From NCBI GenBank assembly GCA_020853775.1, contig JADYYH010000093.1, forward strand, positions 211 through 64,210: a stretch of DNA of 64,000 nt, read 5' to 3'. This document shows positions 1 to 23,382 of this stretch, in pieces; the stretch's first letter is position 1, and every line of letters starts with the position of its first letter. Both the position numbers and the translations under genes were made by a program. A model generated the notes under the pieces. That model saw only the letters and a program-made list of their open reading frames with translations, was not told the origin of the DNA and made no database searches. The DNA is from Nitrospira sp. (GTDB lineage: Bacteria > Nitrospirota > Nitrospiria > Nitrospirales > Nitrospiraceae).

Positions 1-762
1 CGGACACACATCTGATTGCGTTTCTCCGAATTACGCATCGCGTTCGATGGCACTGTCGATCTACCGCTGAGGACGCGAGTCTTCTTCAAAAAGGAGTCAG
101 GACGAATGACAGCATCCGTGTGGTGGGTGTACCCGTTGCGTGATGAGGCGTGTCAGTCGTTGGATCTGGTTCAGTCGGGCAGTCGCCCCCTGCAAATTGG
201 ACTTCCGAGGTAGTCCTAATGGACGAAAGAGGACAACTGTTCTGCGAGTTCTCCCCTTCGTTTTCCTGCCAATGGATCTATCAGATCCTCAAACATCGCC
301 CTGTGTGATCTGCTTTCGAGAATGATGCTCCTGTCGAAGGCGAAGCCGAACGGCCAAGCGACATATTCTGCTGCGGAGCGATCTACGTTGTTCGAATCGT
401 CGAGCCTCATGAACTTCTGTCGGCTGATCGCTCAACCGAACTACCTGGGGACTCTCTGGTGTGCCTACCAGGTCAGGGAGTGGACGTCGTTCCACAACCT
501 GAAGATTCGCTCGAAATTAAATGAACGTATTCTCAGCGTACCGTCCGGAAGAATGACGACAGGCTCCGGGACCAGCACAAACGTACGAGGGAAGGTGTGG
601 ATGTTTCCCGGTGGTGACCAGGCACCAATATCCGATGTGCGGATCCATACGACTCTGTATAAGTGGCCTCGATGGAATTCGAGCCGTCAGGGGTCGATGG
701 CTACATAACGGCATGCGGAGCGAACTGTAGCGGAATTGGATTCCGTCGGAAATCGTTTAAGA

Positions 763-1038
763 ATGCGCTCTCAATTCACTGACCAGCGGAAACAGCAGAT
801 TCTGAAAGAAGGACGCTCCAAAGGCGGGATTGAACACGTGTGCAGGAAATACGGCATTTCTATGAGCACGTTTTATCGCTGGAGAGCCAAGCTGGGCGGC
901 CAAGAGACGGATCCGACTGTTCACTTGCGTTCCTTGCAACTGGAGAATCGACGACTCAAACATCGGGTGGCTGAACTCTCGCTGGATTATACCATTCTCC
1001 GATCTGCATTGATCAACGACAGGGGGAATGAATGTTGA
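763..1038 (+). mobile_element. IS3-family transposase OrfA-like HTH protein, orphan (no OrfB)
   Basis: Translation has the OrfA pattern (RSQFTDQRKQQILKE...EHVCRKYGISMSTFYRWRAK...LQLENRRLKHRVAELSLDYTILR). No DDE ORF follows. Start placed at ATG 763. Confidence 0.8.
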
Positions 1039-1195: not shown

Positions 1196-2929
1196 ATGAA
1201 GGCTGTGATCATGGATGGCGCTCCATATGCCGGAACAATGCTGGCGTTTCCCGTCGGGAACGAATTGTTGATAGACCATTTGCTGTTGACGCTCAAGAAG
1301 GTTGGCATCCGGGACGTCGCGGTCGTGTCCTGCGAGCAGGATCCGTCTGTTCGCGAGTTGATCTGTCGCGCCGGCCGTTCGTGTGACATGACGGTGGTGT
1401 GGTGTCCACAGCCTGTCTATCGTGGCACCGCTGGCAGTTTGCAGACGGTCGAAGGCTTTCTCGATACGCCGACCTTTGTTGGTATCCATGCCAATGTTTA
1501 CTTGAGGGATGTGGACTTGGCGGCTGCATTCAAAGCGCATGACGAACATCGTGCAGGCATCACGCTGGTTACTCAGCGGCTGGCCGGTACTGATGACGAT
1601 CTGGAAAGTGTGGAGGTTGATCCTGCGGGGCTCGTTTCCAGGGTCAACATTCTGCATTGGTCGAGAAATCGCCGGAGTCAGTTGACCCCGTGCGGGGTGT
1701 ATGTGTTCGACCGAGAGATCCTCTCGCATATTCCTCGGGATGAATATTTCGACGTCAATGAGCAACTCGTGCCGCTGCTGCGAAGCCTTGGAGGCGTGAT
1801 ACGTGCTCATCAAATCGAGGGCGGTGTACACACGATTGCCGGGCCTGAGGACTTTCTCTGGTTGAACCGCGAGATTCTGCACGAAAATATGCAAGGCGGC
1901 CTGCGCGGAGGCAGTCGAGGTTGGGGTATGGACGACATCGTTATTGGAGAGAATTCCGATATCTCTCCACGCTCGTTTCTCCTCGGTCCTCTGGTGATCG
2001 GCCCCAATTGTGTAGTGGAAGATTATGTGCACCTGATCGGTCCCGCGGTGATCGGTCCAACCTCCCACTTGGAAAAAGGGAGCCTCGTGCGCGAGAGCGT
2101 GGTCCGGTCCGGTACGCGGGTGCAGGGAAATGCCAGGGTTGAATACTCCGTGGTAGCCGGCGATGAGACGGTGCCCGAGGGCATGCGCCTCCGAAGCACG
2201 TTCTGGACCACGGCGCAGCCGGCCATGTATGAGCCGCATGGACCGTCGAACCAGGCTGCTCCGAACAAGCTGCTGCAACGGACGAGGCGCGCTCAACGGT
2301 CTTCCGGAAAAGCGCAGAGGGGCAGCGGTCAACGGTCGATGTATGGCCTGATCAAGGCTGTCGGCGATATCGCGGCAGCTGCCGTCGGGATGGTCCTTGT
2401 GGGTCCGCTCATGCTGCTCATCGCACTGGCGGTCAAGTTGGATTCTCCGGGTCCGGTATTTTTTTCTCAAAAGCGGTGCGGAAAAAACGGCAAGGAGTTT
2501 TGGATGCATAAGTTCAGAACTATGGTGCCGGATGCCGAGCAACGCCAGAAGGACTTGCGGACGCACAATACGGTCGATGGACCGATGTTCAAGTTGGAGG
2601 AAGATCCGCGCGTCACCCGCTTGGGCAAGATTCTTCGCAAGACGAGCCTCGATGAGTTGCCGCAGTTGTTGAACGTCTTGCGCGGAGAAATGAGTCTGGT
2701 CGGCCCCCGACCGCTGGCCTATGACGAGATGAAATTCTGCCCGACATGGCGGGATGCGCGGCTGAGTGTGCATCCCGGACTCACAGGCCTCTGGCAGGTG
2801 AAGGCGCGCAATCGCAATCGATTTGCGGAGTGGATTCGATACGACCTCGAATATGTCCGCACACATTCGTTGTGGCTTGACCTGTACATTCTCATCCGGA
2901 CCGCTCGGGTGTTGCTGAAAGGAGTGTGA
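1196..2929 (+). CDS. Fusion: degenerate NDP-sugar pyrophosphorylase-like domain + left-handed beta-helix + priming phosphoglycosyltransferase (Bac_transf/WcaJ-like)
   Basis: N-terminal MKAVIM..GTAGSL..GVYVFD fold, hexapeptide repeats (IGENSDI, IGPNCVV), C-terminal KFRTM..DPRVT..SLDELPQL..SLVGPRP. GGAG SD before ATG 1196; the ORF track start at 1028 is probably too long. Confidence 0.88.
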   Translation: MKAVIMDGAPYAGTMLAFPVGNELLIDHLLLTLKKVGIRDVAVVSCEQDPSVRELICRAGRSCDMTVVWCPQPVYRGTAGSLQTVEGFLDTPTFVGIHANVYLRDVDLAAAFKAHDEHRAGITLVTQRLAGTDDDLESVEVDPAGLVSRVNILHWSRNRRSQLTPCGVYVFDREILSHIPRDEYFDVNEQLVPLLRSLGGVIRAHQIEGGVHTIAGPEDFLWLNREILHENMQGGLRGGSRGWGMDDIVIGENSDISPRSFLLGPLVIGPNCVVEDYVHLIGPAVIGPTSHLEKGSLVRESVVRSGTRVQGNARVEYSVVAGDETVPEGMRLRSTFWTTAQPAMYEPHGPSNQAAPNKLLQRTRRAQRSSGKAQRGSGQRSMYGLIKAVGDIAAAAVGMVLVGPLMLLIALAVKLDSPGPVFFSQKRCGKNGKEFWMHKFRTMVPDAEQRQKDLRTHNTVDGPMFKLEEDPRVTRLGKILRKTSLDELPQLLNVLRGEMSLVGPRPLAYDEMKFCPTWRDARLSVHPGLTGLWQVKARNRNRFAEWIRYDLEYVRTHSLWLDLYILIRTARVLLKGV

Positions 2930-5157
2930 CTGTGCCGTACACGACTGGGCTCCCTGAGGCGAACTCCGCCACTGTCGGCCGATCGGCGTTCGGCCTGCGA
3001 GAACACTTGATCACCGTGTTCCGCCAGAAACGTCTGTTGCTCACGATTCTCGGAGTCGCAACCATCGTGGCCGGGCCGGGCTCGTTTTTGATGACCAATA
3101 TCTATAGCGCCGAGGTTCGATTGCTCATCCAGAACGCGCGGACACCGTTCAGCATGAGCACTCCGTTGACGGGGCAGGTGTTCACGCCTTCCGACATCAC
3201 CCAAAAAGACGATGTGGCGACCGAAGTGCAAATTTTTACCAGCCCGATCCTGTTGGATAAGTTGGTCGACTACTTCGGAAATGAACGAGTGCTGGCTTCC
3301 ATGCGTGGGCGGTGGGACTGGGTCGCCGAGCTGCCGAAAACCGCTTTCAAGCAACTGGCCGGTCTGCCGCCGGTCGCACAGTTCCTAGCGACGATCGGGT
3401 ATGCGCCGAAACCCGAGAATCTACATTATCAAGCGGTACAGCAGATCCGGGCTCATTTGAATGTGGAAGGTGTGCGCCAAACGCACGTATTCGTGGCGAG
3501 TCTGGATTCTCCCGACCCGAACTTTTCGGCAGATGCTCTCAACGCCTTGGTCGCCATTTATCTGGATCATCAGTTGTCGATCCGTAAAGGCAAAGGGGCG
3601 CGTGAATTTTTCGATGAACAAACGAAGCAGATGCGCGGCGAATTGCAGCAGGCAGAGCTTCGGCTCCAGGCCTTCAAGGACAAGTGGAATATTGTCTCCA
3701 TCGAGGACCAGAAGCGACACCTCTTGCAGCAGGTGACCCACACGGAGGCCGCGCTTCGCGAAAGTCAGGTACAGGTCGCAGAAACGGAAGTGCGCATCAC
3801 CAAACTGAAGGAACGGCTGGCCGGACAACAAGAAGCGATTCCCCTGACGAACGTCTCCGAACGGAATCCGATGCTGGATCAATTGAAAAACCGGTTGATG
3901 CAGATGGAGTTGGAATACTCGCAGTACGTGCCGGACAGTCCGGCCGCCGCTGAGTTGGTACGAGAAATCGCCGCGGTCCGTGCCCGGCTGCAAGCGGAGA
4001 GTGCAAAAGTGACAGGCGCGGCCACCTCCGGTGTCAATCAAACGTATCAGGAACTGAAGCGTACCCTGGTCATGGAGGAAGGTCGCCGGGAGAGTCTGCG
4101 TCCGCGTCTTTCAGAGTTGACCAAGCAATTCAAGTCCTACCGGGACTCCCTGAATATTCTGGATCAACGTGAAATGGAACTGCAGGGCTTGATGCGCGAG
4201 GTCAAGGTCAAGCAGGAAGCGTTTGACGTCTACCTCAAGAAGGAAGAAGAGTCGCGTATCAATGAAGTGTTGGACCGAAAAGGCATTTCGAACGTCAATG
4301 CGATCGAGCATGCGATGGCCCCTCAGAAGCCGGTCAGACCCCGCAAGTTTCTCAATGTGGTGATCGGACTGTTGATTGGATTGGTCGGAGGATTCGGCTC
4401 GGCCTATGTCTCCGAATATATGCGTCGGACGTTCGTCACCCGTGAGGAAGTGGAAGACACCCTGAAGCGGCCTGTGCTCGCCGCATTGCCGCTCGTACGT
4501 CCCGGTACATCCGATGTGGGCAGTTTCGATCTTGAGTTACGGCAAGCGGCGCAACAGGTCATTCGCTCCTACCATGAGCGTGGTCTCAGAACAGTCCTTG
4601 TCACCAGTGCGCTGCGCGGAGAAGGCCGGTCGTATGTAGCTGCCGCGCTCGCGCGTGTGCTGGCCCAGCAGAAGTTTCGCATGCTGCTCATCACTTTCGA
4701 GGAGGCCGGGTCGGAGCAACCAACGCCGGGTGATGCCGCTGCCGGACTGAAACAGGGGCCGGGGGCGGATCGGCTGCTGCAGGAGACCCCCGAGCCGACT
4801 GATTGCCCGCAGTTGCATCGGTTACTGGTTCGGCACAGGGAGGGCACGGCGCTGGAATTTGCCGAACATCTGGCGGAGGTCGCTAAGACCATGCGGGATC
4901 GTTTCGATTTGATCGTGATTGACGGTCCCGCGTTGACCTCATTTCCTGAAATGCGGGTTGCCATCGCCGGTATCGACGGTACGATTTTGGTGATCGAAGC
5001 TGAGCGAACGGTGTCGGTGGCCGCGAGTAGAACGATCGCGGCGATCGAGGCGGCCGGAGGGCATTTGCTGGGACTCATGTTGAATAAGCGGCGGTACATC
5101 ATTCCGGACTGGATTTATGGGCGGTGGTTGGCGGCCGGTGGGAGGGAGGGCGTATGA
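2926..5157 (+). CDS. wzc: Polysaccharide co-polymerase, Wzc/GumC-like, with degenerate BY-kinase domain
   Basis: TM - Wzz-like region - long coiled coil - PQKPVRP + TM - P-loop-like domain (GEGRS, IVIDGP). GTGA overlap with the upstream gene. Confidence 0.85.
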   Translation: MTVPYTTGLPEANSATVGRSAFGLREHLITVFRQKRLLLTILGVATIVAGPGSFLMTNIYSAEVRLLIQNARTPFSMSTPLTGQVFTPSDITQKDDVATEVQIFTSPILLDKLVDYFGNERVLASMRGRWDWVAELPKTAFKQLAGLPPVAQFLATIGYAPKPENLHYQAVQQIRAHLNVEGVRQTHVFVASLDSPDPNFSADALNALVAIYLDHQLSIRKGKGAREFFDEQTKQMRGELQQAELRLQAFKDKWNIVSIEDQKRHLLQQVTHTEAALRESQVQVAETEVRITKLKERLAGQQEAIPLTNVSERNPMLDQLKNRLMQMELEYSQYVPDSPAAAELVREIAAVRARLQAESAKVTGAATSGVNQTYQELKRTLVMEEGRRESLRPRLSELTKQFKSYRDSLNILDQREMELQGLMREVKVKQEAFDVYLKKEEESRINEVLDRKGISNVNAIEHAMAPQKPVRPRKFLNVVIGLLIGLVGGFGSAYVSEYMRRTFVTREEVEDTLKRPVLAALPLVRPGTSDVGSFDLELRQAAQQVIRSYHERGLRTVLVTSALRGEGRSYVAAALARVLAQQKFRMLLITFEEAGSEQPTPGDAAAGLKQGPGADRLLQETPEPTDCPQLHRLLVRHREGTALEFAEHLAEVAKTMRDRFDLIVIDGPALTSFPEMRVAIAGIDGTILVIEAERTVSVAASRTIAAIEAAGGHLLGLMLNKRRYIIPDWIYGRWLAAGGREGV

Positions 5158-5948
5158 GTGACTCGATCGCGGGAGTAATGCCGGTCAATGACAAGACGGT
5201 CCCTGCAGAGGGATTCGTTCGAGAAGACGGGTGGTATGCGCCCTATGATTATTGGCTCACGTTATGGGGCCTCTATGAGCTGTATGCTTACGCACTGGCC
5301 TTGCTCGGCAATGTGAAGGACAAAGTGCTTCTGGATTGCGGCTGTGGTCCCGGCCATACCTCGGTGATGCTCGCGAAACGCGGCGCCATCGTCACGGCCT
5401 TCGATACGGCCGACGGTCAACTCGAGACGGCGCGCCGATTAGCACAGGCGAATGGAGTGCACGTGACCTTTCTGTGCAAGCCGTTCGAGGAGCTGGATTT
5501 TCCCGACGAGAGTTTCGACGTGGTCTTTGGCACATTCGTGTTGCATCACGTGGATCTTCCGAAGGCTAGTCGGCAATTGGCGCGTGTGCTGAAGCCGGGG
5601 GGAAAGGCAGTGTTCATAGAAAACTCCGCGCTGAATCCCTTGCTCATGGCGGCCAGAAGCAAAGTGTGCGGAAAGTTCGGTGTACCTCAATACAGCGATG
5701 AGCATGAGCACCCGCTCACTCGTCATGATATTGCGACGCTACAGAGCGCTTTTCCCGGCGCCTGCACCATTCATTTTCCGAGTTTCTTGTTCTTTCGATT
5801 GCTCGATTTCTACATGTTCAAGAAGCGCTGGGCGTGGATGACGGCCCTGCTACAACGCTGCGATCAGGTCGCCGGCTCGATATCGTTCGTGCGTCGATAT
5901 GGCTACCTGCAAGTCGTCGAACTGGGTAAGGGAATCGTACGTGCGTAA
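5154..5948 (+). CDS. Class I SAM-dependent methyltransferase
   Basis: Motif I LLDCGCGPG, then FPDESFDVVFG..LHHVD..RVLKPGG. ATGA overlap with the wzc stop. Confidence 0.88.
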   Translation: MSDSIAGVMPVNDKTVPAEGFVREDGWYAPYDYWLTLWGLYELYAYALALLGNVKDKVLLDCGCGPGHTSVMLAKRGAIVTAFDTADGQLETARRLAQANGVHVTFLCKPFEELDFPDESFDVVFGTFVLHHVDLPKASRQLARVLKPGGKAVFIENSALNPLLMAARSKVCGKFGVPQYSDEHEHPLTRHDIATLQSAFPGACTIHFPSFLFFRLLDFYMFKKRWAWMTALLQRCDQVAGSISFVRRYGYLQVVELGKGIVRA

Positions 5949-7215
5949 CGATCTGATCGAATCCGGACTGGGCGTCTGCCGGGGGCTGGTCATCCTGTCC
6001 GGGCTGTTCTTTGCGGCAACGGATATCTGGGCTTCGCCCGCCCCAGAGGCAGTGGCTGGATGTCGGGCCGAAGCCCTTGCGCCGAAAAATCATCGTACCT
6101 CTTTGCCGGATCGCGTCACGCTGATCCCGCCTTCGAACGGCACCTACATCGGCTTATACAGCATCGGTACAATCGCGGAAGACCAGCGGCGATTTGTTGA
6201 GAAAAGCGGGCATCGCCCCGCGATTGTATACACGTTTCACGATTGGGTGTCCGACGACGATTGGGCCTCGTCTTCGCCGCATTTCCGGACCTTCACCGAC
6301 CCGTTAGAATCATCCCGAGTGAGTCCGCTCCAGCTGGCCGAGCAGGTGAGAAAGGAAGGCAGTGTGCTGGCGGTGGCCTGGGCCATCCAGTGTTGCGATT
6401 GGGAGTCCCACTTGTTCTGGTATGGATTTCGGAAGCCGACGGTAACGGTCGATCGTCTTTTGCAGGGCGAATACGATTCGTACATCACGAGCGTGGCCCG
6501 TCAGATTAAGTCCTACGGTCATCCGATCATGCTGACCCTGTTCAGCGAGTTCAATTACCAGGGAATGATGGGATTCGGTAAGCGAGGGGGAGAACGGCTG
6601 GATGAGGTCGCCCATGTCTGTCGTCTGTATGGGGATCCGACATGGCCGGACGGGCCCGAACGCATTAAAGACGCTTTCGTGTACGTCATCGACAGATTTC
6701 GAAAAGAAGATGTGCGAAATGTGACGTGGTTCATGTATGCCGGGTCCCACTATATGAATCCTCGTCACGAGGACTACTCGCAATGGCTGCACCCTCAGTA
6801 TTTCTATCCCGGCGATGACTATATCGATTGGGTGGGGCAGAGCGCGTACTTCATCGATCCCAGAGCCATTCCAAAACTCCGGCAGCAGGAGCTCGCCACG
6901 TCAGTCACGGAGGCATTGGCGCCTGGCTATGTCGCGTGGGGGGCGGTGACTGAGCGGCCGCTGTTTCTTCCTGAGTTCGGGGTGTTGGGAGATAAGACGC
7001 ACAGTCGAGCACGAGTGCTGGAAGAGGTCTTTCGCGACGTGTTGCCCCAGTTCCCTCGAGTGCAGGCCATCACACTGGCTGATTTCAAAATTGCCGAGGA
7101 TTACTACGAAGTGCCCAGGCTTGGCACATTCGAGGATGAAACAGGCGCCTGGAAGCGGGCGGTTCGTGAGAACCCTCACTACCTCAAACAGGTCACCATC
7201 AAAGGCGGGGAGTAG
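5941..7215 (+). CDS. Secreted GH26-like glycoside hydrolase
   Basis: Signal-peptide-like N-terminus, acid/base motif SEFN, FYPGDDYIDWVG, nucleophile motif RPLFLPEFG. GTG start overlaps the upstream stop. Confidence 0.75.
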   Translation: MRNDLIESGLGVCRGLVILSGLFFAATDIWASPAPEAVAGCRAEALAPKNHRTSLPDRVTLIPPSNGTYIGLYSIGTIAEDQRRFVEKSGHRPAIVYTFHDWVSDDDWASSSPHFRTFTDPLESSRVSPLQLAEQVRKEGSVLAVAWAIQCCDWESHLFWYGFRKPTVTVDRLLQGEYDSYITSVARQIKSYGHPIMLTLFSEFNYQGMMGFGKRGGERLDEVAHVCRLYGDPTWPDGPERIKDAFVYVIDRFRKEDVRNVTWFMYAGSHYMNPRHEDYSQWLHPQYFYPGDDYIDWVGQSAYFIDPRAIPKLRQQELATSVTEALAPGYVAWGAVTERPLFLPEFGVLGDKTHSRARVLEEVFRDVLPQFPRVQAITLADFKIAEDYYEVPRLGTFEDETGAWKRAVRENPHYLKQVTIKGGE

Positions 7216-7222
7216 TCCGACG

Positions 7223-8608
7223 ATGGTGCCGAACCGGTCCTCCAAATGGCTGTGCCTCTGTGTGGTCTTTGCGCTCTGTTTCTCCCTGCGCGTCGGGGTT
7301 GGCGCGATCATCGATGCGACGGTGCCGGTCGTCAAACGCGCGGATGTCTATTCGGTCGTTGCCGAAAACCTGGCGCGCGGCTATGGCTTTGTCGCGGAGC
7401 CGGGCGGCGAACCCATTGTCTGGCGTGCCCCGCTCTATCCGGCATTTCTGGCGGCCATCTATGCGCTTTTCGGAGAGCATAACGAAACGGGGGTGTTTCT
7501 GGCGCAATCCGTGTTGGATTCGCTCACCGCCGTGTTGATCTTTTACATGGGAACCCGGTTGTTCGGTGAAGCCGTCGGATTCGTCTCTGCCGTGACCTTT
7601 GCGCTACATCCTCTCTCTGCCTACTACTCCCTTCGTTTCCTGTCTGAGCCGCTGTTTACCCTGGCGTTTACGGCGGTCATCGCATCCTGGATCGCGGCGG
7701 CCACGAGTCGTCGAATCATCGCGTACATGACCGTCGGGGCCTTGATTGCTCTCGCATCATTGGTGAAACCGATTGCGCTGGGCTTATGGCCGTTGCTTGC
7801 GAGCTGTGCCTTGTATCAGTTGAGAGAGGAGCCTGTTCGCGCATGGTTGGCCGCGACTGCGTTGACCGTGGCTTGCCTCATCGCGTTGTCTCCCTGGGCG
7901 CTTCGGAACTATCGTGTGACGGGCGAATTGGTGGCCGTGGCGACCGGAGGGGGCTACGCTCTCTGGCTCGGCAATCAAATGGTGAGCGAGGGGAAGGAAG
8001 ACTGGGAAGTCGACGACATGACCCGGGCACACCTGTTTGCGCGGCGCAGCGCGGTGATTGCAGGAAATGAAGAAGCCGATCGGTTTCTCATCCCTGTCCC
8101 AAGCCGACCGTCGATCCGATCGGCCACGCAGCCGGTTCACATTTCGGTTCCGGAAGATGATGCCTTTTTGAAAGCAGCCTGGCGTGAGATGGTATCTCAT
8201 CCGTTCGGCACGGCGTTGTTGACGACCAGGAAACTGTTCAGGTTTTGGTTCAAGATTTTTCTTCCCGATAATCGCTGGGCGCAATCCTACATTACCTTGT
8301 TTCAAACCTTCTTCCTGGGTGTGGCGGTTCTAGGCCTGCTGGAGGCGAAGCGAAGGGAAATTCCTGTGTTCGCGTTGATTCTACCGGTCATATTCCTTGC
8401 GGTCGTGCATGCGCTGACGTTTGCCACGATTCGCTACAGTATTCCGACTGTACCCGTCATGACGATCTTTATGTCGGTGGGATTACAAGTTGCCGTGCGC
8501 AGGCTGAATGAAAAAATGGGGATGTCCGTCGGCATGTTCTTGAGGCGACCGTTACAGGCCGCGTTTTCGGATAAAGCGATTCTGTCGTCTCGCAGACGGC
8601 GTTCATGA
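7223..8608 (+). CDS. GT-C membrane glycosyltransferase (ArnT/PMT_2-like)
   Basis: Many TM segments, NLARGYGF..RAPLYPAFLA, LSEPLF, PWALRNY, periplasmic loop. Confidence 0.8.
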   Translation: MVPNRSSKWLCLCVVFALCFSLRVGVGAIIDATVPVVKRADVYSVVAENLARGYGFVAEPGGEPIVWRAPLYPAFLAAIYALFGEHNETGVFLAQSVLDSLTAVLIFYMGTRLFGEAVGFVSAVTFALHPLSAYYSLRFLSEPLFTLAFTAVIASWIAAATSRRIIAYMTVGALIALASLVKPIALGLWPLLASCALYQLREEPVRAWLAATALTVACLIALSPWALRNYRVTGELVAVATGGGYALWLGNQMVSEGKEDWEVDDMTRAHLFARRSAVIAGNEEADRFLIPVPSRPSIRSATQPVHISVPEDDAFLKAAWREMVSHPFGTALLTTRKLFRFWFKIFLPDNRWAQSYITLFQTFFLGVAVLGLLEAKRREIPVFALILPVIFLAVVHALTFATIRYSIPTVPVMTIFMSVGLQVAVRRLNEKMGMSVGMFLRRPLQAAFSDKAILSSRRRRS

Positions 8609-8656
8609 TCAGGCGCATAGCCTGCTATTTCAGTATGGAGACGGGGTAACGCGAAC

Positions 8657-9967
8657 GTGCACATCCTGCAAACCGGCATAAAGGTTCTGCTCAGACAGAC
8701 GGCGCTGGTTTTTGCCGGAAAAATGGCGGCGGCCTGCCTGGGTTTTATCATGAGCCTGGTCGTAGCGAGGCTTATGGGACCGGACGAGTTCGGGTTGTTT
8801 TCACTGTTCGTCGTGATTCTGATTCTCGGCAATGATCTGCTTGGAGATGGACTCAATCCTGGGGTCGTCCGTTATTACGCGATGCATAGCATCACGAATC
8901 CGATCAGAGCCTCCGAGGTGTTGACCAATGCGCTTGCCCTGCGACTTCTGGTGGGCATCCCCGTGGTATTGCTAGGGGTGGTTCTCGGAGGTCAGGCCGC
9001 TGAACGACTATTCCAGAACCAGGTCTATGTGCTTCCGATTATGCTTGGCCTGGTCGGGTCCTTCGGCGCGGCTTTGTGGAGTTTTAATCTGGCTGCATGG
9101 CAATCCCGACAGGATTTTTTGACCTATTCTGTGATGGTAGGGCTGGTGAATTTTCTGCGAGTGCTCAGTCTGCCGGTCCTGCTCTTGATGGGACACCTGA
9201 CACTCGGGACCGTTATGGGGCTTCATGTGGTGTTTTTCTATATGTGCACGGTTGCGGGATTATGGATCCTTCGCCCGCATCTGGCTTATGTTCGGCTGAA
9301 TGGGGCACTGCTTCGCGAGCTGTTCCATTTTAGTAAATGGCCGGCATTGGCGAGCACCTGCTTTCTCCTTCAAGTCAATCTCGGGGTTCCGATCCTCAAC
9401 TATTTTTACAGTTCACGAGACGCCGGTGTGTATGCAGCGGGCGTGTCGCTTTTGCAAGGTATAGACTTCCTCACGATCAGTCTATTGACCACGTTGCTCC
9501 CGAAAGTGAGTCAATTGAGCGGGCTCGAGCAATGCCGTGCATATGTCCGGCGCTCATTCCCTCTATACCTGGGGCTCGCCCTCTGCCTCGTTCCGGTGAT
9601 GTTTTTTGCCCAACCTCTTGTGATCGGCCTGTTCGGTTCGGCCTATGAAGGTACCATTCCGGTGTTTCAGATTTTGTTTGTTGGAGTACTGGGAACGCTG
9701 GTGACGCAGCCCTTGTACCTCGTGTTGTATACGATTAACCGCCCTCACCTCTATACGTATTCCGGGTTTGTGGCTCTTGGTGCATGGATTTTCGCAGGAC
9801 TCTGGCTCATTCCCGCATATGGAGCCGTAGGCGCGGCCTTGACGACGTTGTGTGCCCGCCTCATCCAGTCTGTACTGATCGTCGTCATCATCTGGCACGC
9901 ATTGGAGTTCGGCGCGTCGTCGGGTCTGGCTGTACGTTCCATGATCTCGAATGTAAGGGAATCATGA
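8657..9967 (+). CDS. wzx: Oligosaccharide flippase (Wzx/MOP family)
   Basis: About 12 TM; ARLMGPDEFGLF, DAGVYAA, LIPAYGAVGAA motifs; operon context. Confidence 0.88.
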   Translation: MHILQTGIKVLLRQTALVFAGKMAAACLGFIMSLVVARLMGPDEFGLFSLFVVILILGNDLLGDGLNPGVVRYYAMHSITNPIRASEVLTNALALRLLVGIPVVLLGVVLGGQAAERLFQNQVYVLPIMLGLVGSFGAALWSFNLAAWQSRQDFLTYSVMVGLVNFLRVLSLPVLLLMGHLTLGTVMGLHVVFFYMCTVAGLWILRPHLAYVRLNGALLRELFHFSKWPALASTCFLLQVNLGVPILNYFYSSRDAGVYAAGVSLLQGIDFLTISLLTTLLPKVSQLSGLEQCRAYVRRSFPLYLGLALCLVPVMFFAQPLVIGLFGSAYEGTIPVFQILFVGVLGTLVTQPLYLVLYTINRPHLYTYSGFVALGAWIFAGLWLIPAYGAVGAALTTLCARLIQSVLIVVIIWHALEFGASSGLAVRSMISNVRES

Positions 9968-11361
9968 AGACCTCACAGGCGACCGTTGGTCCGAGCTTGG
10001 CCGGTGCCGTTTTGGGAGCCTCCGTGCTGGCGCTCTCCACAAAGGCCCTCGCCATTGTCGTTGCCGGAACGGCATTGGCGGCGATGGCGTCGTCGGCCGT
10101 CTTTCCCTATTACATTCTGGTGGCCACGATCCCCGTTCAGGTCGATCTTTTGGGAGGCATTACCGTTACCAAATTCATCACGCCGTTGGCCATCGGGATG
10201 GTATTGTTCAATGCCTTGATTTATCGCGGCCCTTGGCCGGTCATCGCGCGTTGGCCGGCCGGTTATCTCGCGATTGTATTCTTCGTCACCTCCATGGTGT
10301 CACTGTTCCTCGCGGAAGGCGTACGAGGATTTCCGGGTGAGGCCGCAAAAATTCCCGTCTACTGGGCGCTCTTTTTCTTCACCCTGACCTTCAATCGAAC
10401 GGCCGCTGATTTTCGTCGCCTTCTCTGGATCATCACCATCACCGGTATTGCGGAGGCGCTCATTACGGCCGCACAAGTGCAGTACGGGTTTGTCATGCCC
10501 GGAGATTGGCGGAGCAATATCGGTTTGCCGAGTGAAGGAGGGATGGACGGCGCGTTCATGTCTTTTTCTGAGGGAAAAATAAGAGCCGAGGGCACAACCG
10601 CCCATCCGATTCTGCTCGCAAGCTTTTTCTTGATGGCGATCCCGTGCACGGCTTTTCTCTTCATGACGGAAGGCTCCTCTCGGGTCAAAGTATTTCTGTG
10701 CGGCGCGCTTGTTTTGATGGGCTATGCCTGGTTCTACACGTTCGCTCGAAGTTCCATTATTGGTTTTGCAGTCGTATGTGTCGTGACCATGTGGTTTCAC
10801 TCGAAGCTCACTCGAAATCTGGTCTTGGCCGGCATCGGGATTCTCATTACAGGCTTGTTAAGTTATCAGGTGATCTCGCAAGTATTTCAGACCGGCATTC
10901 AACTGTTTGACAGTCAGAGTCTGTTCGGGAAAGCCGACTTGAACGACGGCAGTGGAAGCTTCGATTTTCGAATTGAATCCATCGTCGGTGGATGGAATCT
11001 CTTCTGGGTTCATCCGTGGTTCGGTGTCGGATTTGGTCAGTCGATCAATCACTACACAACATATTTGCCGGCCTGGGCCACCCATCCATTTCACCCTGCC
11101 ACGATTCACAATGTGTTCCTAGAGGTGGCGTGCGAACTGGGAGTCTTTGCGACATCGGCGTTCATTGGCTTGTGGATCTGGGCATTTGTCTCAGTGAGGC
11201 GCGCGCTTCGTATTGTCGAACTGAGACCATACGCCGTGTTACTCCTCGGCATCCTGCTGGGGCAAGCGGCCTTTTTAATGATTACCCCGATGGTAAGAGA
11301 AATCTGGCTGACGTTGGCCATGGCGACTGCCATTGGCCATATGGCGAGGAAAGCGACATGA
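9964..11361 (+). CDS. O-antigen ligase/polymerase family protein (Wzy_C), probable polymerase
   Basis: Multi-TM protein with TFARSS, PWFGVGFG, HNVFLEVACELG. ATGA overlap at 9964. Confidence 0.82.
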   Translation: MKTSQATVGPSLAGAVLGASVLALSTKALAIVVAGTALAAMASSAVFPYYILVATIPVQVDLLGGITVTKFITPLAIGMVLFNALIYRGPWPVIARWPAGYLAIVFFVTSMVSLFLAEGVRGFPGEAAKIPVYWALFFFTLTFNRTAADFRRLLWIITITGIAEALITAAQVQYGFVMPGDWRSNIGLPSEGGMDGAFMSFSEGKIRAEGTTAHPILLASFFLMAIPCTAFLFMTEGSSRVKVFLCGALVLMGYAWFYTFARSSIIGFAVVCVVTMWFHSKLTRNLVLAGIGILITGLLSYQVISQVFQTGIQLFDSQSLFGKADLNDGSGSFDFRIESIVGGWNLFWVHPWFGVGFGQSINHYTTYLPAWATHPFHPATIHNVFLEVACELGVFATSAFIGLWIWAFVSVRRALRIVELRPYAVLLLGILLGQAAFLMITPMVREIWLTLAMATAIGHMARKAT

Positions 11362-12638
11362 CACAGCTCCGCGCACTTCATTTGCGTAATTGCCGAGGGA
11401 TTACCGATATCACCGGGCCTGAAAACTATTTGCTGTCGCTTATTCCAAGGCTCAATCAGCAAGGGTGTGAAGCAAGTCTTGCCTGTGTGGTCGATCCTGA
11501 GCGCGGGGAAACACCATGGCTGAACGAAGCCAAGCGGTGTGGCTTGCCGATGGTCACGATTCCGGTGACCAACCGGCTGAGCGTGCGTGATGTATTGGCT
11601 GTCGTCCGGCTGGTTCGGGAGAGAGGAATAGACATTATTCATACCCATGACCATCGGGCCGATGCGGTTGGAATCATGGCTGCACGGATCACAGGATGCG
11701 CCGTGGTCGCCACGTTTGCCGGATGGACCAATTGGCCGTCGGGAACTCTGCGAGGGACTTTATATCCTTGGATTGATCGTCAGGTGCTCGGGTACGCAGA
11801 CGCTCTGATTTCAGATTCGGCGATGATGGCCGCTCAGATCGATCAAGGAACTTCGGGACCGCCGGTTGTAGTCATTCCAAATGGCGTAGACACGGAAGTA
11901 TTTCATCCGGACAGTCCGAACCGCCGAATGTGGGAATCTGGCGAAGGGCAGCAACCATTTGTCCTAGGTATGGTGGGACGGATTCACCCCAACAAAGGCC
12001 AACTGGAATTCCTCAAAACGGCGGCGACGATAACGAAGAGCCATCCTGAATGCCGGTTTCTGATTGTGGGAGAAGCTCCGCCAGGTTACGAACCATACAA
12101 GGCCGACGTATTGCGGTTCATCGAAGAAAAAGGACTGGAAAATGTGGTGACCGTCACCAAAGCGAGCAGAGCGCAGATACCGGGCATCGTAGCCGGCATC
12201 GATATGTTAGTGGCTCCATCGTTCACAGAAAGTTTTAGTTTTGCACTCATCGAAGCCATGGCCATGGGGAAACCTATCGTAGCCACGAACTCTGGGGGCA
12301 CCCCTGAGCTGATCGCACACAATGAGACCGGTGTGCTCATCGATCCTGGGAATGTTGAGCTTCTCACTCTCACGGTGCGCGATCTGATGAAAGACCAGGC
12401 AAGAATGAGACGTTTAGGGACAACAGCGTGTGAATACGTGCAGCGGCATCTCAGCGTTCAGTCAATGTCAGTGAAGACGTTAAATATTTACCGAGAAGTG
12501 GTTGCGTGGCGCAAACAACGCCGAACAGGTGTCTTTCAGGGGCCTGCCCTTGGTGAACGATTGCGGCAGACGTTGGTCCTGGATAAGAGACAGACTGAAC
12601 CTGAACCTCTTCGCCATCTTGATGCTGACGTAAACTGA
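11358..12638 (+). CDS. GT4 glycosyltransferase
   Basis: DIIHTH, VIPNGVD, ESFSFALIEAMAMGKPIVAT..GGTPE. ATGA overlap at 11358. Confidence 0.92.
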   Translation: MTQLRALHLRNCRGITDITGPENYLLSLIPRLNQQGCEASLACVVDPERGETPWLNEAKRCGLPMVTIPVTNRLSVRDVLAVVRLVRERGIDIIHTHDHRADAVGIMAARITGCAVVATFAGWTNWPSGTLRGTLYPWIDRQVLGYADALISDSAMMAAQIDQGTSGPPVVVIPNGVDTEVFHPDSPNRRMWESGEGQQPFVLGMVGRIHPNKGQLEFLKTAATITKSHPECRFLIVGEAPPGYEPYKADVLRFIEEKGLENVVTVTKASRAQIPGIVAGIDMLVAPSFTESFSFALIEAMAMGKPIVATNSGGTPELIAHNETGVLIDPGNVELLTLTVRDLMKDQARMRRLGTTACEYVQRHLSVQSMSVKTLNIYREVVAWRKQRRTGVFQGPALGERLRQTLVLDKRQTEPEPLRHLDADVN

Positions 12639-12651
12639 AAATGAGGAAAAG

Positions 12652-13656
12652 ATGGGAATACGTGTAACGGTCGTCATCCCGGCCTACAACGCTACCAAGA
12701 CGATTCATGACGGGTTGGATTCCTTCGCGCGTCAATCCTTCCCGGCGGGTGAGGTCGAGCTGATCATCGTCGATGACGAATCGACGGATGGCACACCTGA
12801 ATATATCGAACGCTACGTCAAGGATTGGGGCAGCGCGCACCCGAGGGTGCGCGTGCTTCGTCAGAAGCATCGGGGCCCGGCGGCGGCCAGGAATTTAGGC
12901 GCAGATGCGGCCGAAGGAGAATTTCTTCTGTTCACCGACGCCGACTGCGTGCCGCATGTCGACTGGATCAAGGAAATGGTGGCGCCGTTCCAGTCACCGA
13001 GTATTGCCGCGGTGAAAGGTGCCTATAAAACACAGCAACGCAGCCTCGTGGCGCGCTTCGCCCAGGCCGAGTTTGAGGCTCGGTATCGCCAATTGGCGGC
13101 CGCCGAGTATGTGGACGTGGTCTTTTCCTACTCGGCGGGATTTAGGCGAGAGGTATTTTGCTCCATCGGCGGGTTCGACACCAGTTTTCCCGTCGCCGAC
13201 AACGAAGACACGGATCTTTCGTATCGGGTCGCGACGGCCGGGCACAAGATTAAGTTCAATCCGGCGGCGATTATCTATCATCAACATCCGTCGACGCTGA
13301 AACAGTATCTGCGGAAGAAACATAGCCGGGCCTACTGGCGAGTCATGGTGTACAAGCGGTTTCCGCGCAAGGCCATTCGAGATTCCTATACCCCGCAAAC
13401 GCTCAAGATTCAGATCGGCGCGGTCGTCCTGGGCGCAGGTGCGCTGGCGTCGATGCCGCTTGTGCCGATTGCTGGCTATGTCGCAGCGCTTGCAGGCGGA
13501 CTGTTTACCGCCACCGCCTTGCCGTTTCTGTGGCAGCTGCCCCGCGAGGATCCGGGATTGCGAGTGGCCGCGCCATTCCTGTTGGTGTGTCGGGCGGCCG
13601 TGATGGCGTCAGGTTTGATGCGAACTGTGCCGCTGCTCATGAGGAAAACGAACTAA
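12652..13656 (+). CDS. GT2 glycosyltransferase with C-terminal TM helices
   Basis: VVIPAYN, IVDDESTDGT, GPAAARN, FTDADC, GGFD, EDTDL. Confidence 0.92.
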   Translation: MGIRVTVVIPAYNATKTIHDGLDSFARQSFPAGEVELIIVDDESTDGTPEYIERYVKDWGSAHPRVRVLRQKHRGPAAARNLGADAAEGEFLLFTDADCVPHVDWIKEMVAPFQSPSIAAVKGAYKTQQRSLVARFAQAEFEARYRQLAAAEYVDVVFSYSAGFRREVFCSIGGFDTSFPVADNEDTDLSYRVATAGHKIKFNPAAIIYHQHPSTLKQYLRKKHSRAYWRVMVYKRFPRKAIRDSYTPQTLKIQIGAVVLGAGALASMPLVPIAGYVAALAGGLFTATALPFLWQLPREDPGLRVAAPFLLVCRAAVMASGLMRTVPLLMRKTN

Positions 13657-13686
13657 CGATTGATGTTACGGAGAGGGAGGCGAGTC

Positions 13687-14289
13687 ATGCGACGTATTCT
13701 TCACACAAGCTGGGCTGTTTGTTCCATGGTGCTGTGCCTGCTGGGGGGCGCGCAGGCCTCTGAAAATGAGTTGCCTCTGGTGCCGGCCGTTGAAGCCGGC
13801 TGGAGTGGCCCGTTCCGGTTGGGCGCGGGAGACGTGCTCAATGTGTTCATTTGGAAGCATAAAGAACTCTCAACGATTGTGACCGTCCGTCCTGACGGGA
13901 AGATCAACTATCCGTTGATCGGCGAGATTGAGGCGAAAGGTCTGACCCTGGGGGAAATCGAAGACCGCATTAACAAGCAACTCAAGCAGCATATCCAGGA
14001 TCCGCAGGTCACGGTGATCTTGGAGGCGACCCACAGTTTCCGTATCTTCGTCCTGGGTGAAGTGATGCAGCCGGGCGTCTTCGATCTCAAGGGACCGGTG
14101 ACCGTCATTCAGGCCTTGGCCATGGCTCGCGGGCTCACCACGTTTGCGTCCCGGAACAAAATTTTCATCGTCAATCCCGCGCGCGGCAACGAGCAGCGCA
14201 TTCCATTCAGTTATAGCAAGTTCGTACAAGGGGAAGACACGAATCAGAATGTGATGCTTCGGCCCGGGGACACGGTCATCGTGCCGTAA
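13687..14289 (+). CDS. wza: Polysaccharide export protein (Poly_export + SLBB, Wza-like)
   Basis: FRLGAGDVLNV, VRPDGKINYPLIG, GEVMQPG, LRPGDTVIVP. GGAGG SD before ATG 13687. Confidence 0.88.
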   Translation: MRRILHTSWAVCSMVLCLLGGAQASENELPLVPAVEAGWSGPFRLGAGDVLNVFIWKHKELSTIVTVRPDGKINYPLIGEIEAKGLTLGEIEDRINKQLKQHIQDPQVTVILEATHSFRIFVLGEVMQPGVFDLKGPVTVIQALAMARGLTTFASRNKIFIVNPARGNEQRIPFSYSKFVQGEDTNQNVMLRPGDTVIVP

Positions 14290-14328
14290 TGGCGGGCAAC
14301 CAACTATTTCGGAGGAAAGTAATCGCAC

Positions 14329-15654
14329 GTGCTGCACAGTACGCCAGACCAGCCTGCCACTGCGGGCAGAGTGACCGAGCGGCTCTCCAGTGTGAGTCCT
14401 CTGTGGGGCCGCCGTGTCCTGTGCGGCATTGTGCTCTCTGCTGCCGGGCTGTTCGTGCCGTCGATGTTGTGCGCGGAGGAATCTGAACATGCGGAATTCA
14501 TTCGTCCTCAACGTGAGTTCGGTGAGTTGCCGTCATGGCAGAACCAGATGGGATATGAGCGAATGCCGGTGTCTGAAAAATTGCTGCTGGGAATCCCGAC
14601 TCGCCGGGAGGGGTTTACTCCGCGCCTGACCGTCACCGAGCAGTATACGGACAACGTGTTCTTCACTGCTCAGAACCGGGGGACCGACTATATCACGAAG
14701 ATTGCGCCGGGCTTCAGCTATATGACGTCAGGACGTCATGGGCAACTTACTGCGGATTACGCCATGGAGTCCAGAATGTACGTCAACAATACTAATCAAA
14801 ATCGGGCCGTCTCCAGGCAAAACGGAGAATTGCTTGCTTTGCTTGATCTGACGAGCCGAACGACGTTGACGCTTTTTGAGCGCTTTGAATCTTTTCAAGA
14901 TCCCACCGAACAACAGGTGCCCGGTATTCTGGGAACATTCGGCCGCACATCAATCAATATGGGCGCCCTGATGATTAAACATAGGCTGACACCGGCTGTT
15001 GACCTCCTTGTCAACTATGGGAACTTTCTCTGGTCGGTCGATGCGCCGGGGGCGATCAATAGCATGACTCACGAGGGCGAACTTGGTGTCAGAGTACGCG
15101 AGTCACATTGGGGACGGACGACTGTCAAATATCGGTTTCGCTTTTTCAATTTTCAACAAGGCCGTGATCTCCAATCCCATTCGGCGATGGTGGGACACGA
15201 GATGGATCTCTCTGAGACGCTGGCCGTGAGTGGAACGCTCGGAGCGGTTCGTGTCGCCCCGACCCCCTCGACACTCAACTTAATGGCTCAGGCCTCCATC
15301 AAAAAATCCATCGGAGAGGCGCTGTACGAGTTGAGCTATATGCGGGACGTATTTCCTCCTTCAGGAGGCATCAGCCAGCCGCTCGTTGGAGATTTTGTTC
15401 GGGCATCAGCCAAAATCAGGATCGCAAACGGGTTTCTCTTGGATGCGGGACTGGTATGGGTCTTGACCAGTACCAGCTCGGACGATTTGAAGGTGAACAC
15501 ATTGAAATGGAACGCGGGGATTTCCTATGCCCCCACATCGTGGCTCGTGGCTCGAGTGGGATATGACATGTTTGATCAACGGGAGGATCTTTTTGGTACG
15601 TCCACGAGTCGTGCAGCAAACAAGATCAGTTTGAGACTGACTGCCTCATTTTGA
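14329..15654 (+). CDS. Outer-membrane beta-barrel protein associated with polysaccharide export
   Basis: Signal-like segment, YTDNVF motif, alternating amphipathic strands, C-terminal Phe (LRLTASF). Exact start uncertain. Confidence 0.72.
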   Translation: MLHSTPDQPATAGRVTERLSSVSPLWGRRVLCGIVLSAAGLFVPSMLCAEESEHAEFIRPQREFGELPSWQNQMGYERMPVSEKLLLGIPTRREGFTPRLTVTEQYTDNVFFTAQNRGTDYITKIAPGFSYMTSGRHGQLTADYAMESRMYVNNTNQNRAVSRQNGELLALLDLTSRTTLTLFERFESFQDPTEQQVPGILGTFGRTSINMGALMIKHRLTPAVDLLVNYGNFLWSVDAPGAINSMTHEGELGVRVRESHWGRTTVKYRFRFFNFQQGRDLQSHSAMVGHEMDLSETLAVSGTLGAVRVAPTPSTLNLMAQASIKKSIGEALYELSYMRDVFPPSGGISQPLVGDFVRASAKIRIANGFLLDAGLVWVLTSTSSDDLKVNTLKWNAGISYAPTSWLVARVGYDMFDQREDLFGTSTSRAANKISLRLTASF

Positions 15655-20293: not shown

Positions 20294-21307
20294 ATGTATT
20301 GGAAGAATAAGCGCGTACTTGTGACCGGGGGCGCCGGTCAAATCGGTTCTCATCTTGTGGCACGCCTTGTTGCCGCAGGCGCACAGGTGACTGTGGCGGA
20401 CAATCTGTGGCGAGGGAAGAAATCGAACTTGCTCGGCGAGAACGGAGTGCCGGTCATCGACCTGGAAGGTCAATTCCTGGAACTCGACCTGTGCGACTAT
20501 GGTAACTGTGAGCGGGCGACGGAAGGCCAGGATATTGTGTACCACCTTGCCGATGTGGTCGCCGGGATTAACTACGTGTTTGGTAACCAGTTCTCGCTCT
20601 TCAACACAAATCTCATCATCGACTCCAACATGCTGCGGGCGGCCATTGCTAACAAGGTGTCTTCGTATGTGTACGTGGGGACTGCGTGCAGCTACCCCGC
20701 GGAGCGTCAAAGCAAATTGAATCCGCCGCCCTTCAAAGAAGACGACGTGTATCCGGCCTCTCCGGAGTCCTCCTACGGGTGGAGTAAGCTGATGGGGGAG
20801 ATGGGGTGTGACCTGGCCCGCAAAGAGAAACTGCTGGATATCGGCATCCTTCGCTTCCACAACGTGTATGGGCCTCATTGTGAAATGTCTCCTGAGAAAT
20901 CACAAGTCATTCCCTCGCTGATCCGCAAGGCGATTCGCCATCCCGACGAGGAATTTGTGGTGTGGGGATCAGGAAAGCAGCGCCGAGCGTTTGTGTTCGT
21001 GGAGGATATCGTCGATGCGCTCGTCTCTGTGGCCACACAGGGCATGAACCAGGGGGTCATTCAGATCGGCCCCGACTATAGTACTTCGATCAAGGAAATT
21101 GCCGAGCTGGTCTGCGGAATTTCCGGGAAGCAGATCACCATCCGCTTCGATATCAGCAAGCCGGAAGGCGATGTTGATCGCGCGGCGGATTGGAGTAAAG
21201 CGCACGACATTCTCGGTTGGTCACCCAAGACCAACATTCAAGAGGGGCTCGAACGCACGTATGCGTGGTGCGAACGGCAGGTCTTGCAAGGCATCGGGCG
21301 GGTGTGA
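20294..21307 (+). CDS. NAD-dependent epimerase/dehydratase, GDP-mannose 3,5-epimerase-like SDR
   Basis: TGGAGQIG, ACSYP, SYGWSK (YxxxK), RFHNVYGP. Confidence 0.85.
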   Translation: MYWKNKRVLVTGGAGQIGSHLVARLVAAGAQVTVADNLWRGKKSNLLGENGVPVIDLEGQFLELDLCDYGNCERATEGQDIVYHLADVVAGINYVFGNQFSLFNTNLIIDSNMLRAAIANKVSSYVYVGTACSYPAERQSKLNPPPFKEDDVYPASPESSYGWSKLMGEMGCDLARKEKLLDIGILRFHNVYGPHCEMSPEKSQVIPSLIRKAIRHPDEEFVVWGSGKQRRAFVFVEDIVDALVSVATQGMNQGVIQIGPDYSTSIKEIAELVCGISGKQITIRFDISKPEGDVDRAADWSKAHDILGWSPKTNIQEGLERTYAWCERQVLQGIGRV

Positions 21308-21412
21308 GGTCGTGAGACATCTTCCCGCCAGTCCGGCGCAGATGGGTGTGTGACGATCCGGACCGAATGGATTGGACGTTCCAGGTTGTAACAAAAGAAG
21401 TGAGGCAAGATC

Positions 21413-23382
<1,970 letters not shown>

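Follow-up and report, generated by a model that had tools for sequence, protein, structure and literature searches.

How bacteria throttle the first step of polysaccharide synthesis, which consumes undecaprenyl phosphate, is an open question. Recent answers include a DUF of WbaP that senses uridine nucleotides and mediates dimerisation (PMC10942596), the activation of EpsZ by EpsW~P via dimerisation (PMC12802240), and STAS phospho-switches such as the STAS domain fused to the phosphoglycosyl transferase (PGT) All4160 (PMC13555669). We analysed 64,000 nucleotides of a Nitrospira sp. genome (contig JADYYH010000093.1, positions 211 to 64,210; hereafter the window, in which all coordinates below are counted), where the gene at 1196–2929 encodes a priming PGT preceded by a domain with the fold of sugar-1-phosphate nucleotidyltransferases. 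The locus thus raises the question of what such a domain does on a priming enzyme. As described below, the domain has lost every residue scored for catalysis, is maintained under strong constraint and keeps a conserved signature in the presumed former substrate pocket; we suggest that it may be a non-catalytic module that both regulates and assembles the PGT.

Domain layout and catalytic residues

The gene is a single open frame of 577 codons on the + strand, with GGAG located 9–12 nucleotides upstream of the ATG at 1196. An alternative, longer frame opens at 1028; relatives, however, start with MKAVI and are mostly 577 residues long. The parts of the gene referred to in this study are as follows.

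1196–2929, + strand: whole gene, a 577-residue fusion of a nucleotidyltransferase-like domain, a left-handed beta-helix (LbH), a linker, a re-entrant helix and a PGT (open reading frame, profiles, homologues of equal length)
1196–1900, + strand: pseudo sugar-1-phosphate nucleotidyltransferase (Rossmann-like) subdomain, residues 1–235 (PF00483, Foldseek, none of five catalytic residues)
1196–1243, + strand: degenerate signature loop MKAVIMDGAPYAGTML in place of GGxGTRLxPLT..PK (alignments)
1421–1435, + strand: RGTAG loop, corresponding to the nucleoside-binding loop of the fold (G77 99%, A79 89% and G80 99% conserved)
1487–1495, + strand: HAN replacing NGD at residues 98–100, the first metal-binding Asp being lost (Asp in 12 of 133 fusions versus 56 of 71 non-fusions)
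1649–1684, + strand: ILHWSRNRRSQL replacing the F-x-E-K-P sugar-phosphate motif, with a His and an Arg-rich cluster (alignments)
1745–1774, + strand: family signature Y-x-D-x-[KN]-E-Q-L-x-P in the presumed former hexose subsite (conservation in 92 non-redundant fusions)
1829–1843, + strand: HTIAG replacing W-x-D-x-G, with Asp changed to Thr213 and the second metal-binding Asp lost (alignments)
1931–2215, + strand: LbH, residues 246–340 (PF00132 and PF25084; beta-strand ladder in the model)
2216–2329, + strand: basic, disordered and poorly conserved linker, residues 341–378 (confidence score pLDDT below 50, high dN/dS, low identity)
2339–2455, + strand: hydrophobic helix with Pro404 and DSPGP, the predicted re-entrant membrane helix of monotopic PGTs (model, WbaP alignment)
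2456–2926, + strand: PGT catalytic core (PF02397, E 2.9e-66; WbaP 8t53, E 5e-42)

A Pfam scan of the protein recovered NTP_transferase (PF00483) at residues 17–128 (30.4 bits against a cut-off of 21.2), Hexapep/LbH repeats at 248–331 and Bac_transf (PF02397) at 387–574 (222.9 bits against a cut-off of 27; profile positions 1–178 of 179), and no domain beyond these three, a PF13727-type DUF included. The NTP_transferase match begins at profile position 24, and the signature loop of the profile is therefore unmatched. Among the NCBIfam models, those for pyrophosphorylases composed of a nucleotidyltransferase and an LbH matched residues 19–333, with mannose-1-phosphate guanylyltransferase at the top (E 4e-21), followed by archaeal GlmU and then long RmlA. 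An AlphaFold2 model built from 76 homologues (mean pLDDT 80.6) comprised a soluble alpha/beta domain, a beta-helix, a disordered stretch at 341–378, a long hydrophobic helix at 373–416 and the PGT core. When the N-terminal 340 residues were compared with solved structures by Foldseek, the best match was tlr0611 (8x7s; E 4.6e-21), which is the closest solved relative by sequence as well as by fold and was deposited as UTP-glucose-1-phosphate uridylyltransferase. The other matches were GMPPA and GMPPB (7d72/7d74), 7x8j, VTC1, the Leishmania GMPP, eIF2B gamma and epsilon, ST0452, GlmU and ADP-glucose pyrophosphorylases, and the target TM scores were 0.66–0.72 for the closest folds (tlr0611, GMPPB, VTC1 and the Leishmania GMPP). 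The E-values of these matches are far beyond chance, and the N-terminal domain has both the fold and the PF00483 profile of an active sugar-1-phosphate nucleotidyltransferase.

The residues required for activity tell a different story, as judged against 51 active-looking relatives. The signature loop has suffered a deletion of 8–9 residues, which is confined to Nitrospiraceae-type members, and the catalytic Arg and the Lys of PK are absent. The site of E-K-P reads LHWSR, so that its Lys is a fifth loss in addition to those reported in a preliminary description of this DNA; across 133 fusions the Glu column of F-x-E-K-P holds His in 105, and Lys did not feature in the tally for its own column. 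In the column of the second metal-binding Asp, Asp was likewise not among the residues tallied for the fusions, versus 56 of the 71 non-fusions that have it. We scored five positions in 204 aligned N-terminal domains, namely Arg of GTRL, Lys of PK, Asp of xGD, Lys of EKP and Asp of DxG. The 577-residue protein keeps none of them. Among the fusions, none is kept in 64, one in 58, two in 10 and all five in a single case, that is, two or fewer in 132 of the 133, versus all five in 51 of the 71 non-fusions. By alignment, the signature loop with the PK Lys, the two metal-binding Asp residues and the E-K-P Lys expected of an active nucleotidyltransferase are all missing, and we regard the N-terminal domain as a catalytically dead pyrophosphorylase fold, here and across the fusion family. 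In this respect it appears to be an inactive protein of nucleotidyltransferase and LbH, of the type represented by GMPPA. The preliminary description, which was made from the letters of the window, had stated that the NTP_transferase scaffold and the beta-helix are kept and that the GGxGTRL..PK loop and both metal-binding Asp residues (NGD to HAN, DIG to TIA) are lost; Pfam, NCBIfam and Foldseek agree on the former, and the alignment to active relatives bears out the latter.

The C-terminal part, by its motifs, is an intact monotopic PGT with a WbaP-like core. KFRTM (439–443), DPRVT (470–474), SLDELPQ (484–490), GPRP (503–506) and PGLTGLWQ (527–534) are all aligned with their counterparts in the core of WbaP, and the Asp-Glu dyad within SLDELPQ is in place, as had been noted previously. 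The profile score and the combination of the dyad with the conserved motifs both assign this part to PF02397. The hydrophobic helix at 382–416, in which P404 is nearly invariant, aligns with the start of the WbaP core (predicted topology). The PGT motifs are retained in 127 of the 133 related fusions.

We computed conservation over the 92 non-redundant fusions and considered the positions of the nucleotidyltransferase half that are conserved in at least 80% of them. The RGTAG loop is common to the fusions and the active enzymes. A block comprising Y184, D186 (100%), K/N188, E189 (97%) and Q190 (98%) is specific to the family, the active enzymes being different at these positions; L191 and P193, which come after the block, are also kept by the active enzymes. 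G167 and Y169 reach the same threshold, and H-x-S-R-x-R-R stands at the E-K-P site. From the structures of RmlA, Ep and GMPP, we take the GTAG loop to be the nucleoside contact, the segment after the GxY strand to line the hexose pocket, and the E-K-P site to bind the sugar phosphate. The pattern suggests that the residues for chemistry were lost and that the binding subsites were kept and remodelled, which would fit retained ligand binding of the kind seen in GMPPA.

Distribution, constraint and a second carrier of the module

The gene is real and transcribed. Its sequence recurs in metagenomes from at least 12 studies, and RNA-seq contigs cover the gene including the junction at 1936–2394. 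A chimeric assembly was rejected, as single contigs from independent runs span the domain junction with zero differences.

A word-indexed search with the N-terminal domain yielded ~60 clusters (at 90% identity) that share the four-part architecture at identities from 99% down to ~30%; Nitrospira and Phycisphaerales are among the names of their sources. When 1.84 billion representatives were searched exhaustively with phmmer, 2588 matched at E ≤ 0.001; among the best 150 of these (representatives at 50% identity), 85 are fusions of the N-terminal domain followed by the PGT, ~560–640 residues in length, so that at least 85 clusters at this level have the fusion. We also used the family motif Y-x-D-x-[KN]-E-Q-L-x-P as a search pattern on a single genome for each species, and found 80 loci in Nitrospirota (Nitrospira and Thermodesulfovibrionia), Thermodesulfobacteriota and Syntrophobacterales, Planctomycetota (Phycisphaerales and Brocadiaceae), Acidobacteriota, Nitrospinota, Schekmanbacteria and one member of Burkholderiales. 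The fusion is old and widespread, being present in at least five phyla. The preliminary description had proposed to seek the fusion in relatives, and its absence there would have spoken against the sensor that it suggested; the two parts are fused in a single frame at 74 of the 80 loci, and a contig end cuts four of the remaining six, so that the suggestion is not refuted on this count. A full-text literature search detected no paper on a fusion of NTP_transferase and Bac_transf, consistent with the earlier statement that no characterised example was known, albeit the survey of monotopic PGT fusions by O'Toole et al. (2021) lay outside that search and may list the architecture. Within the genus, 11 of 37 species genomes carry the fusion gene, in every case as a single open frame of about 608–658 codons, and it was not found at E 1e-30 in 24 genomes of other genera of the order. 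The locus is accessory and patchy within the genus.

In a phylogenetic tree, the active enzymes cluster together (SH-aLRT 92), apart from the dead fusions, which make up the remainder. We considered whether the unfused 'dead' relatives constitute a separate, free-standing family, and rejected the idea: they are mostly truncated gene calls or recent splits, because they pair with individual fusions on short branches and many of them end in the first PGT helix. The single fusion that keeps all five catalytic residues, P0215 (603 residues), has an aberrant PGT-like half without GPRP and other motifs. As it is nested in the active clade, we consider this protein an independent fusion event outside the family, and its pattern, an apparently active nucleotidyltransferase with an aberrant PGT-like half, is the reverse of that described here.

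To compare the constraint on the parts of the protein, we estimated the ratios of non-synonymous to synonymous substitutions (dN/dS) against six Nitrospira orthologues, the values being approximate because dS is partly saturated. The LbH is the most constrained part, at 0.02–0.03 (reaching 0.09 with the most distant orthologue, for which dS saturates). The nucleotidyltransferase half stands at 0.08–0.13, similar in range to the PGT at 0.06–0.12, and the linker at 0.45–0.68. Mean identities across the family are 30–33% for the nucleotidyltransferase half, 38–40% for the LbH, 7–12% for the linker and 57–59% for the PGT. Judged by its low dN/dS, the dead domain is under strong purifying selection and is therefore functional rather than decaying.

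The module is not restricted to PGTs. The first search had given a weak match to P0095, an exosortase with an N-terminal LbH, and a search with the N-terminus of P0095 retrieved ~60 fusions to exosortases (PF09721; P0095 and P0241–P0297), mostly from sources named Phycisphaerales or Phycisphaerae. All of them are without the catalytic residues, and 43 of the 60 carry [YF]-x-D-[ILV]-K-E-Q-L. One PGT fusion, P0060 (locus L060), maps to a Phycisphaerales chromosome of 5,666,113 bp (CP070744.1). The recorded source of the exosortase fusion P0270 is a Phycisphaerales contig of equal length, so that this protein probably lies on that chromosome as well, in which case one genome bears the module on both enzymes. 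By these matches, the dead nucleotidyltransferase–LbH module is portable, occurring on PGTs and, in Planctomycetota, on exosortases. Exosortases use no nucleoside diphosphate (NDP) sugar, and the module is therefore more than an arm by which the PGT captures its substrate. It is tempting to go further, in a tentative manner, and to regard the module marked by GTAG and Y-x-D-x-K-E-Q-L as a portable receptor domain for a nucleotide sugar or a nucleotide second messenger. Such a receptor, fused to membrane enzymes of surface-polymer systems in at least five phyla (the priming PGT and, in Planctomycetota, the exosortase), might place them under the post-translational control of a single metabolic signal, perhaps through an oligomerisation of the LbH that depends on the ligand.

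The exopolysaccharide locus and its neighbourhood

The fusion gene opens a Wzx/Wzy-type exopolysaccharide (EPS) locus in the window. It is accompanied by genes for a Wzz/GNVR co-polymerase, methyltransferases, a PMT_2 protein, Wzx, Wzy and GT4 and GT2 transferases, and further by those for Wza, an AKR, a GMC oxidoreductase, an epimerase, gmd and an Fcl-like gene. The preliminary description had held that the cluster draws on GDP-mannose. For the window this stands, since gmd (TIGR01472; 550 bits, above the cut-off), the Fcl-like gene and a further epimerase are found at 20294–23382; as a feature of the family it does not, because homologues of gmd, fcl or the epimerase occur within 8 kb at only 2–3 of the 80 loci. 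The neighbours that recur among 79 loci are the co-polymerase (58), Wza (45), a GerE/LuxR regulator (23), Wzx (18), an AMP-binding enzyme (16), Wzy (15) and an NPP-type phosphodiesterase (12).

Clustering of the neighbours of at least 120 residues and of those of 70–170 residues revealed no conserved STAS, kinase or receiver partner in the 79–80 loci, nor any other small one. A partner-switch (STAS) link was rejected on this ground, the PGT half being intact besides. An active nucleotidyltransferase was not conserved among the neighbours of the 79 loci, either. Elsewhere in the genome there are canonical nucleotidyltransferases, including a ManC-type enzyme adjoining another PGT, and three other PGTs in total. 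An active nucleotidyltransferase–LbH protein used as the query (P0065) matched, through the LbH, only two other loci of the genome, frames of 500 (C50) and 561 (C12) residues, and the remaining nucleotidyltransferases of the genome are without an LbH. No close active paralogue with both parts was found in the genome or among the conserved neighbours. The long upstream region of one relative was searched for riboswitches and other known RNAs, with nothing credible detected.

Several neighbours deserve mention in their own right. The type I phosphodiesterase/nucleotide pyrophosphatase (PF01663) found near 12 of the 79 fusions (e.g., L048:27-1487) and the AMP-binding enzyme found near 16 could bear on the turnover of nucleotide sugars around the priming step. 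As for the GerE/LuxR-type regulator, the protein at L018:6224-6952 (− strand) combines REC and GerE and lies ~1 kb upstream on the opposite strand; the contig of the window begins too near the fusion gene to show any such gene upstream. Directly downstream of the fusion gene, the Wzc-like co-polymerase at 2926–5157 (+ strand) is matched by tyrosine autokinase models weakly and below the cut-off, and its Walker A motif is GEGRS, with Arg for Lys; in most of the distantly related loci the co-polymerase is ~507 residues long and matches the GNVR domain only.

Upstream, at 736–1038 (+ strand), there is an open reading frame of 100 residues for a helix-turn-helix protein similar to OrfA of IS3. Five or six other Nitrospira genomes have a homologous frame at this position, ~160 bp ahead of the fusion gene; its conservation is of the coding type up to the stop codon, and RNA contigs continue from it into the fusion gene. 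We rejected the notion that the frame is a relic of an insertion sequence, given its conserved position in other Nitrospira and its coding-type conservation; it probably encodes a small regulator, domesticated to serve the EPS operon.

The PGT, the co-polymerase, the export protein and an outer-membrane protein of the locus have their best matches in models of the XrtA/PEP-CTERM system (TIGR03013, 03007, 03018, 03027 and 03016), all of them below the cut-offs; within 2926–15654 (+ strand), it is the co-polymerase, Wza and a 441-residue protein that match the last four models. A search for exosortase (PF09721) gave no match in the genome, and a link to an exosortase of its own was rejected. With no model above its cut-off and no exosortase found, the locus is not an XrtA/PEP-CTERM EPS system as defined by these models. 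The stretch at 2926–15654 appears to be derived from such a locus, or to be akin to one, with the exosortase missing.

Possible roles of the module

In our reading, the gene encodes the priming enzyme of the EPS locus, in which a flexible linker of ~38 residues tethers the N-terminus of the PGT, predicted to be cytoplasmic, to a non-catalytic module; we propose that this module serves regulation and assembly. The highly constrained LbH would make protein-protein contacts, either for self-association of the PGT or for docking to partner machinery. The remodelled pocket, composed of RGTAG, D-x-K/N-E-Q-L and the Arg-rich HxSRxRR, may bind a nucleotide-sugar-like or nucleotide ligand and thereby tune the activity of the PGT. 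The committed step, at the expense of undecaprenyl phosphate, would then be coupled to the level of a precursor or signal, and the module would stand in, functionally, for the DUF by which large PGTs such as WbaP sense nucleotides and dimerise. To this combined role, with a probable ligand pocket, we assign a probability of roughly 50%. A UDP-sugar, UMP or a GDP-sugar is a possible ligand; the nearest relatives are ambiguous on the base, being of the GMPP type by NCBIfam versus a UDP-glucose pyrophosphorylase by the best solved structure. The preliminary description had seen in the domain a sensor of nucleotide sugars, which we find plausible. Docking or oligomerisation is at least as well supported as sensing, because it is the LbH, not the pocket, that is most constrained and because the module is also found on exosortases.

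Several observations weigh against our proposal. The N-terminal domain diverges faster than the PGT across the family (30–38% versus 57% identity), and the long linker predicted to be disordered argues against a rigid allosteric interface. The placement of the conserved residues in the pocket rests on motif homology with RmlA/GMPP enzymes. In the Nitrospira clade, the deletion of the loop that would cover the phosphates and the loss of the PK Lys may weaken nucleotide binding. Besides, an RGTAG-type loop is also present in eIF2B gamma, whose ligand binding is doubtful, and the loop may therefore be structural.

In a simpler view, the module is purely a scaffold that binds no small ligand and uses the LbH for oligomerisation of the PGT or for docking to envelope machinery, such as co-polymerase and export proteins or, in other phyla, the exosortase. 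The exceptional constraint on the LbH and the deletion of the signature loop in Nitrospira would be readily explained, the LbH mediates assembly in the structural relatives GMPPA/B, VTC1–KJC and eIF2B, and the frequent synteny with the co-polymerase and Wza genes as well as the presence of the module on exosortases without need of an NDP-sugar point in the same direction. Nevertheless, the strongest family-specific conservation (D186, E189 and Q190, with G77 and G80) sits in the old substrate subsites, not in the LbH; the whole nucleotidyltransferase half is kept at a dN/dS of ~0.1, and a bare LbH would suffice for assembly. We hold a pure scaffold to be possible, though somewhat doubtful. A further reading, that of the preliminary description, is a sensor dedicated to GDP-mannose (or GDP-fucose) that permits priming only once the GDP-sugar pool of the cluster is filled. 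It could appeal to gmd, the Fcl-like gene and the further epimerase in the locus, to the guanylyltransferase model at the top of the NCBIfam matches and to the precedent of GMPPA (PMC11228364). However, the genes for GDP-sugars are rare near the fusions, tlr0611 was deposited as a uridylyltransferase, the monotopic PGTs characterised so far take UDP-sugars (PMC11626204) and exosortases carry the same module, which together make a sensor of this specificity improbable.

Dead and active paralogues composed of a nucleotidyltransferase and an LbH commonly hetero-oligomerise, and the module could accordingly be imagined as a recruiter, which pairs with an active pyrophosphorylase in the style of GMPPA–GMPPB or GlgD–GlgC and brings NDP-sugar synthesis to the membrane PGT. 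This would call for a partner, but the conserved neighbours at the 79 loci include no active nucleotidyltransferase and the genome offers just the two further loci matched by P0065 through the LbH; recruitment thus seems quite unlikely. The near-invariant polar residues where substrates formerly bound could even be taken as a new active site built from H154, D186, E189 and Q190, for instance for hydrolysis of an NDP-sugar or modification of a sugar. We give this very little credence, as the fold has no precedent for such activity, the two metal-binding Asp residues have been lost along with both of the basic residues that bind phosphate, and no result in this study points to catalysis.

The combined regulatory and assembly module proposed here has counterparts in known systems, none of which it matches entirely. 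The large PGTs WbaP and CpsE (8t53; PMC10942596) have the same catalytic core and an accessory cytoplasmic domain with a nucleotide-binding-type fold N-terminal to it. The Nitrospira protein is not of the large-PGT class, because it has neither the four-helix membrane bundle nor the PF13727-type DUF; its accessory domain is a soluble, apparently dead pyrophosphorylase with an LbH on a disordered linker, followed by a re-entrant helix as in small PGTs. GMPPA, plant KONJAC, eIF2B gamma/epsilon and GlgD (7d72–7d74, 8yre, 6caj; PMC11228364) share with the module the two-domain fold, in which competence was lost and the scaffold kept. They have regulatory or assembly roles, and GMPPA, a non-catalytic paralogue, binds the NDP-sugar product GDP-mannose (PMC11228364; PDB 7d72). 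These proteins are free subunits acting on an active paralogue, whereas the module forms one polypeptide with a membrane enzyme from another family. It has also lost the catalytic residues more completely, and a close active paralogue was not found; it is not a GMPPA-type subunit, as no active partner is evident. Bifunctional PGTs, i.e., fusions with an acetyltransferase or a glycosyltransferase (PMC11626204), likewise join a monotopic PGT core to a domain derived from the same pathway. Their extra domain is a working enzyme, whereas here it is a predicted pseudoenzyme, so that the Nitrospira fusion does not belong to them in the strict sense. With the STAS–PGTs All4160 and XssP (PMC13555669) and with EpsW–EpsZ (PMC12802240), the fusion would have in common a direct, post-translational control of the priming PGT, exerted by a regulatory domain at the N-terminus or on a partner, but the input in those systems is phosphorylation or partner switching, for which there is no conserved neighbour in the 79–80 loci. 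The likeness to XrtA/PEP-CTERM loci lies in the best-matching models and in the Planctomycetota exosortases that bear the same dead module; the scores below the curated cut-offs and the lack of a detected exosortase in the genome set the Nitrospira locus apart. By analogy, the protein may function as a WbaP-like core to which a pseudoenzyme of the GMPPA type has been added. Because the domain is soluble and flexibly linked to the membrane part, the proposal is open to standard assays of binding and activity.

If the proposal is true, the fusion would be a fourth solution to the throttling of the priming step, different in origin from the uridine-nucleotide-sensing DUF, the EpsW-driven dimerisation and the STAS phospho-switches, in that a pseudoenzyme derived from the makers of the PGT's substrates would exert the control. 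The family is large, and most of it comes from environmental phyla without cultured members. Nitrite-oxidising Nitrospira, which are important in wastewater treatment for the biofilms and flocs that they form, belong to it.

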